Part shown: positions 61,310 to 64,000 of the stretch, piece after piece
How the letters are laid out: each line of letters opens with the position of its first letter
Numbering within the stretch: the first letter of the stretch is position 1
Source: a virus
Lineage: Duplodnaviria; Caudoviricetes
Length of the DNA: 64,000 nt
Strand: one strand, 5' to 3'
IMG/VR virus record: IMGVR_UViG_3300014204_013734
Span: 288,001 to 352,000 of that record
Position numbers and translations under genes: made by a program
Notes under the pieces: generated by a model
What the model saw: the letters and a program-made list of their open reading frames with translations, nothing else
What the model was told of the DNA's origin: nothing
Database searches by the model: none

Positions 61310-61966
61310 ATGTTAACAAGGGATCAAGTTAAGGAACGTATCCATTACCAGAAGGAATCCCTCACCAAATGTCGCAAAGAAATTCCAATCCTTTGCAAGG
61401 AAGCCGCTACAGAAAAAAACGTTTTTAAAAGTAGGGAGTTGGAACACGAAGCAGCACTTAAACAAGGCGGAAAAGGGGTTGTAGGACAAGAACATCGGGA
61501 ATTTCTTCTTGTTTACGCGTGGATGAGAAACCGTCGTTATCGAACTGTGGAACGACGGACGGCAATTGACAACATAGCTGACCGTTTTCTGGCAGAACGT
61601 TCCTTGGAAAAACTTGTACAGAGAGTTGTGCGACACCTATCTGTCGATCGCGAAGTTATCTGGTTTTGGATGACTTTTGATTTCCCTCCAAAGGATATTC
61701 TGGAAGGAAAGGCTTCGTTCATGGTGGCGGAAATCGCGAAGAAAAAGATGGAGGAAGCGGAAAAAGACGTCCAAGAAGCTGAAAAACATTTGGCTAGAGC
61801 CGAAGCACACTTTGTTGCGGAAAAAGCCAGATTGGAAGCCAGTATCGAATGGGCTCAGGAAAACCTGAAAAAAGCAACCGCTGAAGCAACGTACCGCATC
61901 AAGGCTTTCGCTGAAATCAAAGCTGCCGTCGGGAATACAATTCAATCGGGTGTGGTGAAAGGGTAA
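61310..61966 (+). CDS. Hypothetical helical protein, paralogue 1
   Basis: HREFLLVYAWMRNRRYRTVERRT plus coiled coil. Confidence 0.7.
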   Translation: MLTRDQVKERIHYQKESLTKCRKEIPILCKEAATEKNVFKSRELEHEAALKQGGKGVVGQEHREFLLVYAWMRNRRYRTVERRTAIDNIADRFLAERSLEKLVQRVVRHLSVDREVIWFWMTFDFPPKDILEGKASFMVAEIAKKKMEEAEKDVQEAEKHLARAEAHFVAEKARLEASIEWAQENLKKATAEATYRIKAFAEIKAAVGNTIQSGVVKG

Positions 61967-61973
61967 TTTCAGT

Positions 61974-62633
61974 ATGAAACCGGAAGAATTGAAGAAAGAC
62001 ATTAAGTCCTTAACCGTGTCCCTCATTGAATACCGCAAGAACATCAGGAAATTGATCCTTGAGGCCCGGCAGGAGGAAAAGACCGACGCTGATCGGAATA
62101 TCTTACGCGAACGGGCACAAAAGGCTAAGACCAATAAGGATTACTATGGTAGGAAACAGCGTCATCTTCTTCTGGCCTGTGCCTGGTTGCGTAATTACCG
62201 CTACAGGACCGTAGAAGGACGAACGCTGGCCGACAAGGTAAAGGATCCCTGGGAAGCCCGGATGATACGAGAAAACCTTGCGGAAGCCGTTTCTAATCTA
62301 CTCCCTGTTGGAAGACAGGAAGTGCTTACCTGGATGACGGTAGACCTTGAACCTCGGGAAGTTGAACGGAAGCTGTACCTTGAAGCTTTTGAGAAAGCTG
62401 AAAAAGAAGTAGCGGAAACTTCCGGAGAAACAGAATTCGCCCAGTGGTTTTTATGCGAAGTGACTACCTTTGTCAAACAATTGGAAAACAAAGGCGAAGA
62501 ATCTTTCGTTCTGAATTTGGCCAGAAAACAGAAGGAAAAAGCGGCTAAGACATTAGAAAAAACGAAGGCCCTTCTGGCGGGTAAGCAGAGGGCAAGGGAC
62601 CGTGCAAAAGAAGTTGTTTTCCGGGTAGATTAG
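61974..62633 (+). CDS. Hypothetical helical protein, paralogue 2
   Basis: QRHLLLACAWLRNYRYRTVEGRT plus coiled coil. Confidence 0.7.
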   Translation: MKPEELKKDIKSLTVSLIEYRKNIRKLILEARQEEKTDADRNILRERAQKAKTNKDYYGRKQRHLLLACAWLRNYRYRTVEGRTLADKVKDPWEARMIRENLAEAVSNLLPVGRQEVLTWMTVDLEPREVERKLYLEAFEKAEKEVAETSGETEFAQWFLCEVTTFVKQLENKGEESFVLNLARKQKEKAAKTLEKTKALLAGKQRARDRAKEVVFRVD

Positions 62634-62648
62634 TTTGGAAGTTGTTCA

Positions 62649-62676
62649 TTGACAATTGTAGTACCCAAGTTAGTTT
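62649..62676 (+). promoter_or_regulatory. Sigma70-like promoter candidate
   Basis: TTGACA-N16-TAGTTT; predicted start coincides with the first stem of the folded leader. Confidence 0.5.
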
Positions 62677-62679
62677 TAC

Positions 62680-62968
62680 GTTCCCAAAGAAATTCCAATC
62701 TGTAGGGAAAAACGTTTGTTGAAGAATCTTAAAGGAAATCCTTTAGATTCGCGTTTTTTCCATAAAACATCAAAATGATCGTACAGATTCAGGAATTGGG
62801 AACTCTAAGGTTCCCTTCCCACAAAAGAAGTAGGTTCGCGTTCCTAATGATTTCCATAGGTTAGGTAAGATTTTGGGTAAAAACCGTTACTTAAAAACCA
62901 AAGGGTTTTTAGGTTCACGTTTTCATCCCAAAAATCTGAATAATAACATAGGTTTGGAATGGGACCCT
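62680..62968 (+). ncRNA. Candidate structured RNA (two nested stem domains) preceding the mini-array
   Basis: 62680-62704 pairs with 62782-62803; inner stems 62706-62714/62752-62761 and 62724-62750; 62808-62819/62956-62968 encloses 62868-62877/62927-62937 and 62892-62911. Confidence 0.55.
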
Positions 62969-63158
62969 CTTTAAAGGGGTCCGAACCCCCTTTACACGTT
63001 GAAAGTTCCCCCACCGCCACCTGCCGGACCTTGCCATGCTTTAAAAGGGGATCAGGTCCTCTTTTACACGTTGAAAGAAAACACGTTGAACAATGGGCAT
63101 TCCAGCCTCAGCTTCGGTCCTTTCAAGGGGGATACAATCCCCCTTCACACGTTGAATT
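62969..63158 (+). CRISPR. Cas-less CRISPR-like mini-array: 3 divergent hairpin repeats (37-39 nt), 2 spacers
   Basis: Repeats at 62969-63005, 63039-63077 and 63120-63158 share CTTT..AAGGGG-loop-CCYCTT..ACACGTTGAA; spacer 2 matches 63533-63559 at 24/27. Confidence 0.75.
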
Positions 63159-63190
63159 AAAAGCAACCCATAATTCCAATTGTCCCAAAG

Positions 63191-63225
63191 AAGTCCCCTG
63201 GTTCAAAACCACGGGGCTTTTTTTT
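63191..63225 (+). terminator. Intrinsic terminator after the mini-array
   Basis: CCCCTGGTT-CAA-AACCACGGGG stem followed by T8. Confidence 0.75.
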
Positions 63226-63286
63226 GGCTATGGTCTTTACCAAAGTGGAGGGGCATCCCTACCTCCCCAACTTAAGGAGTCTTAAA

Positions 63287-63577
63287 ATGCCTATGCAGGA
63301 CCGACAAGTAACAATCCTGGACGTAATTGCTGATACCGATGGGGCAGCTTTCCTCGTAGGAAGGAAAGGGAATTCCCATCTATTTGTCATTACGATCACC
63401 GGGGCGGCTACCGTCAAGATACAAGGCCGACAAAAAAGCGGTGCTTGGAAGGATTTGACTTCTACGGCAGCGAATGCCGAATTGAACGTTGATGATTACG
63501 GTTGGTGGGAATTTAGGGCCGTTTCATCGGCGATGGGAATTCCTGCCACAGCTTCGGTCGTTTGGAGTTGGACCTAA
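63287..63577 (+). CDS. Small beta-rich probable virion protein; contains the spacer-2 match
   Basis: AAGGAG RBS; ATVKIQG...WKDL pattern. Confidence 0.65.
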   Translation: MPMQDRQVTILDVIADTDGAAFLVGRKGNSHLFVITITGAATVKIQGRQKSGAWKDLTSTAANAELNVDDYGWWEFRAVSSAMGIPATASVVWSWT

Positions 63578-63593
63578 GAAAGGCGTTTTGTAA

Positions 63594-64000
63594 ATGACTG
63601 AAATCAAATATCCCCCAAATGAATCGACCCCGACTGCCCACCATACAACCCACGAACCTGGGGGTTTAGACGAAGTGTTTGGCATCCCTGCCGCACCCCA
63701 TGCGGCAAGCCACCTAACAGGGGCGGACCTGCTTCCCGACGCTACTGGAGTAGCCCGAGGGCTCATGTCGGCGGCATTTGCCGGCAAGGTCAATGCCCAG
63801 TTTTTCATTGACCCGAATTCCATCCACGTCGACAAAAACCGAACTGATGTTTATACCGAAGATGGAAGCCCAACATTCCCTTACAAGACCATTCAGGCAG
63901 GTGTAACCCACGCAGAAACGACGGCCACTTCTTCTAATCCTGTTATGGTGATGGTTGAACCAGGTAATTATGACGAAAACGTGGTCATCCACAAAGACGG
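63594..64000 (+). CDS. Probable tail fibre/spike protein, 3'-partial
   Basis: Hand translation gives HAASH, GLMSA and DGSPTFPYKTIQAGV...VEPGNYDENV (start of a pectin-lyase-like beta-helix). Confidence 0.6.
   Translation, partial: MTEIKYPPNESTPTAHHTTHEPGGLDEVFGIPAAPHAASHLTGADLLPDATGVARGLMSAAFAGKVNAQFFIDPNSIHVDKNRTDVYTEDGSPTFPYKTIQAGVTHAETTATSSNPVMVMVEPGNYDENVVIHKD

Follow-up and report, generated by a model that had tools for sequence, protein, structure and literature searches.

A strongly folded leader ahead of a CRISPR-like mini-array in a huge phage genome

[quoted passage not shown] We analyzed this stretch, hereinafter the leader (positions 62680-62968, plus strand), within a 64,000-nt window that comprises bases 288,001-352,000 of the 381,280-bp IMG/VR virus record IMGVR_UViG_3300014204_013734; positions below are those of the window unless indicated otherwise. 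The fold of the leader is real and unusual, its structure is maintained across two alleles, and the leader and the array together form a single non-coding cassette. Tentatively, and with somewhat less than even confidence, we interpret the stretch as the folded, transcribed leader of a Cas-less, virus-borne mini-CRISPR-like array, which would play a role in cis and through which the phage would employ host Cas proteins against competitors.

Fold of the leader and its maintenance across alleles

On the plus strand, the leader has a predicted minimum free energy (MFE) of -86.4 kcal/mol (RNAfold), compared with -60.5 +/- 4.9 kcal/mol for dinucleotide-shuffled sequences (z-score -5.25), and none of the 200 shuffles folds as well. 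Thus, the strong base pairing noticed in an initial annotation of this DNA, made from the letters alone, far exceeds that of shuffled sequence. When 289-nt segments taken every 300 nt along the 381-kb record are ranked by folding energy after correction for G+C content, the leader comes third or fourth among 1271 (-3.45 standard deviations). Segments that are comparably over-folded for their G+C content lie at record positions ~190,501, 120,301, 53,401, and 318,601 (window 30,601). In both alleles, the plus strand, which is the strand of the neighboring genes, is 6.5-13 kcal/mol more stable than the minus strand, and its fold includes about twice as many G-U pairs. The leader consists of two domains:

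Leader domain 1, 62680-62803, plus strand: 124-nt extended hairpin of ~46 pairs that contains nested stems, plus a small side hairpin (MFE -41.8 kcal/mol, z-score -7.0)
Leader domain 2, 62804-62968, plus strand: long central hairpin and an ambiguous closing stem that reaches repeat 1 (z-score -2.4 for the whole domain)

Most of the stems named in the initial annotation are present in the MFE structure, namely, GTTCCCA/TGGGAAC, the AATTCCAATCTGTA arm, GGAAAAACG/CGTTTTTTCC, the GAATCT..AAAGG apical hairpin, AGATTTTGGG/CCCAAAAATCT, and TAAAAACC/GGTTTTTA, and the fold indeed closes at the first repeat (62967). Only the stem that closes domain 2 departs from the proposed form: in the MFE structure, its 3' strand (62956-62966) pairs with GGTTCGCGTTCC (62832-62843) and not with AGGTTCCCTTCC (62809-62820), and part of the AGGTTCCCTTCC pairing is retained in the centroid structure. 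Because these two similar 5' strands compete for one 3' strand, the closing stem is ambiguous. The core of domain 2 (62866-62940) folds with a z-score of about -5.9.

Exact-sequence look-ups of the neighboring proteins retrieved the locus from four further samples (L196, L197, L199, and L201), where it is 100% identical to the window over 701 nt, and, additionally, a variant allele, L054. The L054 sample is part of a published landfill metagenome study, and the phage lineage comes from landfill-type metagenomes. The communities in which the phage occurs are those of landfill sample 3300037067, sample 3300035208, SRR6484787, ERZ27247350, and SRR18595299. Between the window and L054, the divergence is 0.3-0.8% for the surrounding genes, denoted A, B, and C, and 3.4% for the tail-fiber gene downstream of them. 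The L054 array occupies the same position, with the flanks kept on both sides, and contains four repeats and three wholly different spacers. The L054 leader has lost 12 nt at the apical hairpin tip in domain 1; has gained a 17-nt insertion between the domains, which holds the reverse complement of the adjacent TTCCCTTC and forms a new hairpin with it; carries an exact inversion of a 4-nt loop in domain 2 (AAAG to CTTT); and has a 5-nt deletion in domain 2 along with a few point changes. An A-to-G change in domain 2 converts an A.C mismatch into a G-C pair.

The rearranged leader of L054 folds with an energy of -101.3 kcal/mol (z-score -8.6), and 68 predicted pairs are common to both alleles. 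When the window leader was altered at random 400 times, each time with changes that matched the observed ones in kind and number, the energy was -73.9 +/- 6.6 kcal/mol; none of the 400 reached -101.3 kcal/mol, and 4% were as stable as the original window leader. With regard to the fold, the alleles thus differ in a strongly non-random manner. This comparison shows that the structure of the leader is maintained across alleles, whether or not for an RNA function. No further homologs of the leader were detected by blastn against 50,697 phage records or in the IMG/VR scans, and a metagenome scan returned chance matches.

A mini-array in an inserted cassette

The leader runs into three 37-nt units that start at 62967, 63039, and 63120. 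In each of these, the lower stem AAGGG(G)/(C)CCCTT carries an upper stem and loop that vary between units, followed by the tail ACACGTTGAA:

Repeat 1, 62967-63005, plus strand: lower stem AAAGGGG/CCCCTTT, loop, and tail ACACGTTGAAAG; identified by repeat search, by its hairpin fold, and by a hidden Markov model (HMM) of the repeats (E-value 3e-11)
Spacer 1, 63006-63038, plus strand: 33 nt, no match found
Repeat 2, 63039-63092, plus strand: different upper stem and loop, same tail, with a second tail copy, ACACGTTGAA, at 63081-63090
Spacer 2, 63093-63119, plus strand: 27 nt, 24 of which match the 3' end of gene C
Repeat 3, 63120-63156, plus strand: terminal repeat with a degenerate tail (GAATT instead of GAAAG); identified by hairpin fold and repeat HMM

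The tail of the last repeat is likewise degenerate in L054, and the spacers are ~26-35 nt long over both alleles; two or more direct repeats, unique spacers of about 25-40 nt, and a degenerate terminal repeat are what is expected of a mini-array. A profile of the repeat units has no matches elsewhere in the genome. The tail is doubled in tandem after some of the repeats (63078-63092 in the window; 1914-1924 and 1997-2007 in L054, where the duplicated unit is the exact 11-nt CACGTTGAAAC), and both spacers with a known match begin directly after the second tail copy. In metagenome-assembled genomes of Bacteroidaceae and Prevotellaceae (L073, L076, L109, L139, L148, and others), tandem 22-nt repeats of the form ..caACACGTTGAAAcc..aaa, many per genome, share a 12-mer with the tail of the phage repeats and form no hairpin; they are probably unrelated.

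The genes that surround the folded stretch are all on the plus strand, in the order nucleotidyltransferase, a three-gene two-component signaling cassette, a 160-amino-acid (aa) protein, gene A, gene B, ~650 nt without a credible gene, gene C, and the tail-fiber gene. The features of the locus that bear on the origin and expression of the cassette are as follows:

Gene A, 61310-61966, plus strand: helical protein without a family; tandem paralog of B, 36% identical
Gene B, 61974-62633, plus strand: helical protein of 219 aa, from the list of open reading frames (ORFs); the cassette directly follows its stop codon
Promoter-like site, 62649-62676, plus strand: TTGACA (62649-62654), 16-nt spacer, TAGTTT (62671-62676); a weak, putative site read by eye
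Direct repeat, left copy TCCCAAAGAA, 62682-62691, plus strand: 10 nt, found by repeat search, within the outer stem of domain 1
Direct repeat, right copy TCCCAAAGAA, 63183-63192, plus strand: aligns with the pre-terminator sequence of cassette-free relatives
Intrinsic terminator, 63195-63225, plus strand: CCCC..GGTT/AACC..GGGG stem followed by T8, identified from its fold; serves the cassette and is ancestral to the locus
Gene C, 63287-63577, plus strand: 96-aa protein without a family, upstream of the tail-fiber gene; contains the near-protospacer of spacer 2 (63533-63559)

Protein B has no Pfam or PHROG matches, and a search of the ESM Atlas for hints of its function returned weak coiled-coil look-alikes alone (TM <0.45). 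The terminator is overlooked by a simple terminator scan owing to its internal loop.

The leader and the array make up one non-coding cassette of ~500 nt that lies between the stop codon of gene B and the ancestral terminator of that gene. Homologs of gene C with 81, 73, 68, and 57% identity were found on short contigs, and the gene upstream of these homologs is an ortholog of B (46% and 30% identity). In the cassette-free relatives (L202-L208), the B ortholog is followed by an intrinsic terminator and then, within 100-115 nt, by gene C, and the terminator together with the sequence after it is recognizably homologous to 63183-63286 of the window. Given that these relatives contain neither leader nor array at the same junction, the cassette is a lineage-specific insertion, and there is clear evidence that the leader and the array arrived jointly, as one insert ahead of a pre-existing terminator. 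Three of the relatives (L202-L204) carry a single 220-aa ortholog (L202 3732-4394) after a 56-aa gene, versus the tandem genes A and B here.

The cassette is bracketed by the two copies of TCCCAAAGAA; because ~0.2 such 10-nt repeats are expected per region by chance, the bracketing is merely suggestive. The first 19 nt of the leader (62682-62700) also match gene A at 61372-61390 (codons 21-27) in 18 of 19 positions. The TCCCAAAGAA pair, or the patch shared with gene A, may be an insertion scar or a trace of recombination. A decayed third paralog of A and B was considered and dismissed, as tblastn with both proteins against the region found nothing, leaving only the 18/19-nt patch (E-value 0.1 genome-wide). 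No ORF of the cassette is kept between the alleles, so that the region is non-coding: a 108-aa ORF spanning the array (62959-63285), which is called in public assemblies (L196-L201), is broken in L054 and is almost certainly spurious, and an ORF of ~30 aa in the leader is destroyed or frameshifted in L054.

Two of the five spacers in the two alleles can be traced to genes next to the array. Spacer 2 matches gene C (63533-63559) at 24 of 27 positions, on the same strand and in frame, 440 nt downstream; two of the differences are synonymous and the third exchanges Thr and Ser. Spacer 3 of L054 (L054 2010-2033) matches the tail-fiber gene of the same phage at 22 of 24 positions, on the same strand, ~1.2 kb downstream (L054 3199-3222, equivalent to record 352,290-352,313, just past the window end), and both differences fall at synonymous third codon positions. 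Because the same peptide is encoded and the differences are mostly at silent sites, the spacers look as if they were taken from diverged homologs in related phages. For the remaining three spacers, neither the phage nor its relatives yielded a match. No competitor phage perfectly matching the spacers was found in the collections searched; the carrier's own copies are mutated.

The same phage contains a second Cas-less mini-array, at record ~197,040-197,260 (~90.8 kb before the window start), which begins directly after a stop codon and is made up of five degenerate repeats, type I-E-like (..TTCCCCAC-loop-GTGGGGATGAACCG), and short spacers between them. The presence of a second Cas-less array suggests that this phage engages host CRISPR systems in more than one way. 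This array has no folded leader, and the folded leader is thus not a general design of the phage.

Such arrays could also serve anti-defense, with the unit functioning as a decoy (RNA anti-CRISPR, Racr) or a regulator (CRISPR-like regulatory anti-CRISPR, Cracr), the hairpins soaking up host Cas proteins or retargeting them to host cas or toxin promoters, and the leader being simply the 5' part of the transcript. Units that resemble the host repeat and, for Cracr, a match to a host cas promoter or to CreA/CreR would be the defining marks. Degenerate repeat-like units with kept hairpins would fit this explanation, as in the Cracr arrays, among which types I-C and I-E with two or three spacers are known (bioRxiv 10.1101/2024.10.29.618823); the second array, with its degenerate I-E-like repeats and short spacers, and the three spacers without a target in the phage or its relatives would fit as well. 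However, the two traceable spacers clearly derive from homologs of genes in the structural region of the phage, not from host promoters, and we consider an anti-defense function improbable.

Expression and possible role of the leader

In the initial annotation, the folded RNA was taken for a scaffold-type or an independent non-coding RNA, co-transcribed with the guides. Under this explanation, the leader would be the partner of an unrecognized effector, in the manner of a trans-activating CRISPR RNA (tracrRNA) or an omega RNA, or else an independent small RNA on the same transcript as the guides. The size of ~290 nt, the multi-domain architecture, and the same-strand location immediately upstream of the repeats recall the layouts of some type V tracrRNAs, and the fold is kept between the alleles. 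Furthermore, an effector could be encoded outside the record, which is ~72% complete by the CheckV estimate, so that 28% of the genome lies beyond it; another assembly contains a 444-kb contig of the same phage (ERZ27247350, k141_2421636). Nevertheless, the Infernal search of Rfam that the initial annotation had called for yielded no matches (cmscan, 61500-64000, both strands, E-value up to 5), which speaks against any known RNA family, including riboswitches, ribozymes, 6S RNA, Y RNA, GOLLD/ROOL, and CRISPR-DR. The leader contains no anti-repeat, its RNAduplex energies with all three repeats being worse than those with shuffled repeats (z-score +1.1 to +1.9), which argues against a tracrRNA.

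The search for an effector was equally negative. No Cas9, Cas12, TnpB, or IscB is encoded by the neighboring genes, and Cas6, Cas5d, RAMP, Cas1, and the TnpB/Cas12 zinc ribbon (PF07282) are absent from the 381-kb record. The neighbors comprise the two-component signaling cassette, the 160-aa protein, and the helical paralogs, all without a Pfam family, and the tail-fiber protein. These flanking proteins are not specific to the cassette; in particular, proteins A and B are not dedicated partners of the leader because the B ortholog is present in the cassette-free relatives. Searches of the phage database, IMG/VR, and the genome itself turned up no second copy or relative of the leader. Lacking an anti-repeat, an Rfam match, and a nearby effector gene, the scaffold role finds no support, and neither does that of an independent RNA (no Rfam family or anti-repeat, and no cas gene or TnpB in 381 kb); we regard a role of either kind as quite improbable.

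Co-transcription with the guides, the remaining part of that claim, is the natural reading of the locus. Neither the junction of gene B with the leader nor that of the leader with the repeats contains a terminator; the single one (63195-63225) comes after the array, 38 nt (63157-63194) beyond the last repeat. Given that the boundary between gene B and the leader is free of terminators, read-through transcription into the cassette is expected, and the TTGACA-16-TAGTTT site may add to it.

In the explanation that we tentatively prefer, that of a leader serving a Cas-less mini-array, the cassette would be transcribed on the plus strand by read-through from the upstream operon, perhaps also from the weak TTGACA promoter, and the transcript would end at the shared terminator. 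Cas proteins supplied by the host would cut the hairpin-plus-tail repeats and use the resulting guides, which would be aimed at the variants of the neighboring phage genes that are present in competing relatives, whereas the copies of the carrier would escape through mismatches. The fold of the leader would be an RNA module acting in cis, with no guide or scaffold role: its long double-stranded stems could free the guide precursor from the mRNA of gene B, for example, via RNase III-type cleavage, and its helices could shield both new RNA ends from exonucleases. A cis-acting stabilizing or processing leader is our best guess, in which we have moderate confidence.

Several observations weigh against this explanation. 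The putative promoter fails a consensus promoter scan, which finds no sites in 62400-63400, and the transcription start and processing sites of the cassette are conjectural. The repeats within one array are merely 67-74% identical. Canonical Cas1-Cas2 acquisition duplicates the first repeat, and arrays with such divergent repeats are therefore a misfit for this mode of acquisition. No host array with matching repeats was found among the 120 matches listed from the species genomes, or in IMG/VR, the metagenome scan, and 802 sampled genomes of two phyla. The window allele is unchanged in four other samples, indicating that turnover is not rapid. Finally, the leader has accumulated 3.7% substitutions and 34 gap columns between the window and L054, as against 0.3-0.8% divergence of the flanking genes, and the deletion of the hairpin tip, the loop inversion, and the inverted duplication are the types of change that DNA palindromes undergo by template switching. 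The fold could thus have been kept by mutational bias, not by selection on the RNA, and the two alleles present in the collections searched are too few for covariation, that of compensatory double changes, to be counted.

These last observations lead to an explanation at the level of DNA, whereby the leader is a DNA signal, such as a site that host adaptation or recombination factors bind or bend, or a selectively neutral, AT-rich spacer whose inverted repeats are continually created and reshaped by template switching, and the RNA fold has no function of its own. CRISPR leaders are DNA sites for Cas1-Cas2 and IHF, and this leader, with 36% G+C compared to ~50% for the genome, is similar to them in composition. 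Apart from the greater variability of the leader relative to its flanks, three of the approximately six differences between the alleles (the 12-nt tip deletion, the 4-nt loop inversion, and the 17-nt insertion) are palindrome-driven events of a classic kind, and both strands fold well above shuffled sequences, with z-scores of -3.7 to -5.7 for the minus strand. The plus strand, however, is consistently the more stable one, making use of G-U pairs that are A.C mismatches on the other strand. In addition, the leader is located inside a transcription unit, with no terminator ahead of it; the repeats within the array are too different for recent leader-directed acquisition; and the other Cas-less mini-array of the phage (record 197,040-197,260) has no such leader. 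On balance, a DNA-level role or by-product seems unlikely.

The location of the targets invites one more explanation, in which the leader and the array form a self-contained mobile, RNA-guided cassette for homing or exclusion. The guides of such a cassette would cut the allelic versions of the genes beside the empty site in competing phages, and a competitor repaired from the genome of the carrier would thereby acquire the cassette and the linked allele of the fiber module. In this scheme, the folded leader would act as the expression and processing module of the cassette or as the scaffold of a non-Cas partner. Homing would explain why, in both alleles, the targets lie within ~1.2 kb of the array, as well as the bracketing 10-nt direct repeat and the absence of the cassette from more distant relatives. 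Still, we consider it very improbable.

Several other identities of the leader or the array were rejected. Decayed repeats do not account for the leader, as a profile of seven repeats matches the array repeats only, with no match in the leader at an E-value of 50 within 701 nt. A boxA antitermination site, CTCTTTAA, at 62967 is not retained in L054; the sole exact match to the boxA core GCTCTTTAA is at record 70,316, in the form TGCTCTTTAA, as in the rrn boxA of E. coli. By eye, an integron attC site was dismissed because there is no inverted core site and the "cassettes" would be only ~30 nt; a diversity-generating retroelement, because spacers and genes do not differ specifically at adenines and match over only 24-27 nt; and a retron, because no reverse transcriptase domain is present among the neighboring genes scanned. 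REP (repetitive extragenic palindromic)-like elements, the Smithella units of a hairpin plus CTACACGTTGAAC, were retrieved because the query pattern held that 10-mer and are dispersed composite repeats, not arrays. In Smithella sp. M82 (L101, L103), the REP-like units combine two hairpins, one of them GTAG-type, and one strand reads hairpin plus CTACACGTTGAAC.

The expression, maturation, and renewal of virus-borne mini-arrays constitute the gap on which this locus bears, and its unusual aspects include a long structured leader that stays folded through rapid rearrangement. Should the fold prove functional, the leader would be a new kind of cis element that makes guide RNAs from inside an mRNA, and multiplexed guide cassettes could be designed after this natural model. 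Should palindrome mutagenesis have left the fold as a by-product, the locus would be a clean example, found in nature, of such mutagenesis. Repeats that retain a hairpin and an 11-12-nt tail while varying in sequence may well escape standard CRISPR repeat finders, and in either case, counts of such degenerate repeat arrays in phage genomes are probably too low.

Comparison with known systems

RNase III processing hairpins separate the genes of phage polycistronic transcripts, for instance, in the T7 early region. Similar to the T7 RNase III sites, the leader is an intergenic hairpin, long and imperfect, that directly follows a stop codon within a transcription unit and could separate and stabilize two RNAs; unlike the T7 R site, it is far larger and consists of two domains, and its cleavage is putative. 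Type I-C repeats comprise a hairpin followed by an 11-nt 5' handle that ends with ..TTGAAAC and is cut by Cas5d. The present units resemble these in layout only, with a 7-9 bp stem followed by an 11-12-nt tail (ACACGTTGAAAG/C) that ends with TTGAAAG/C and is duplicated in L054 as CACGTTGAAAC. The tracrRNAs of types II and V-B/E/F/K and the omega RNAs of TnpB and IscB are, like the leader, structured RNAs of 100-300 nt beside repeats, on the same strand, but the leader comes without an anti-repeat, an effector gene, or a family match.

Among the virus-borne arrays, the Cracr arrays are multiplexed, degenerate repeat-like hairpins of types I-C and I-E on phages, with two or three spacer-like segments, processed by host Cas proteins, and their spacers match host cas or toxin promoters (bioRxiv 10.1101/2024.10.29.618823). 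In contrast, two of the spacers described here match homologs of phage genes, and a long structured leader, as found here, is not mentioned in the sections of the preprint consulted.

Compact arrays without cas genes have been described in huge phages, with spacers against the structural genes of other phages; the use of host Cas proteins was proposed, and in those cases, the repeats resemble those of the host (Al-Shayeb et al. 2020, PMC7162821). The present array likewise is compact and resides in a huge phage, without adaptation or interference genes; it differs in that the repeats keep structure and tail, not sequence, and in the additional folded leader.

The closest parallels come from the Cas-less mini-arrays with leaders in the SPV1 and SPV2 viruses of Sulfolobales, where sister viruses carry different spacers at the same array position, the self copies of the targets are mutated, and the targets are located near the arrays (Medvedeva et al. 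2019, PMC6858448). The array described here shares with these an intergenic location, one to three spacers, a leader ahead of the array, and no virus cas genes (in the record held), as well as a close relative, L054, with different spacers at the same position and mutated self targets near the array. The differences are that the carrier is a huge phage of bacteria, that the repeats are only 67-74% alike within an array, that no reciprocal targeting is seen between the two alleles, and that the leader, of ~290 nt, is exceptionally folded, a feature unreported in the archaeal cases. Cas-less virus mini-arrays are already known; what is new here is the large folded leader, the repeats conserved in structure and tail, and the clear cassette-type insertion.

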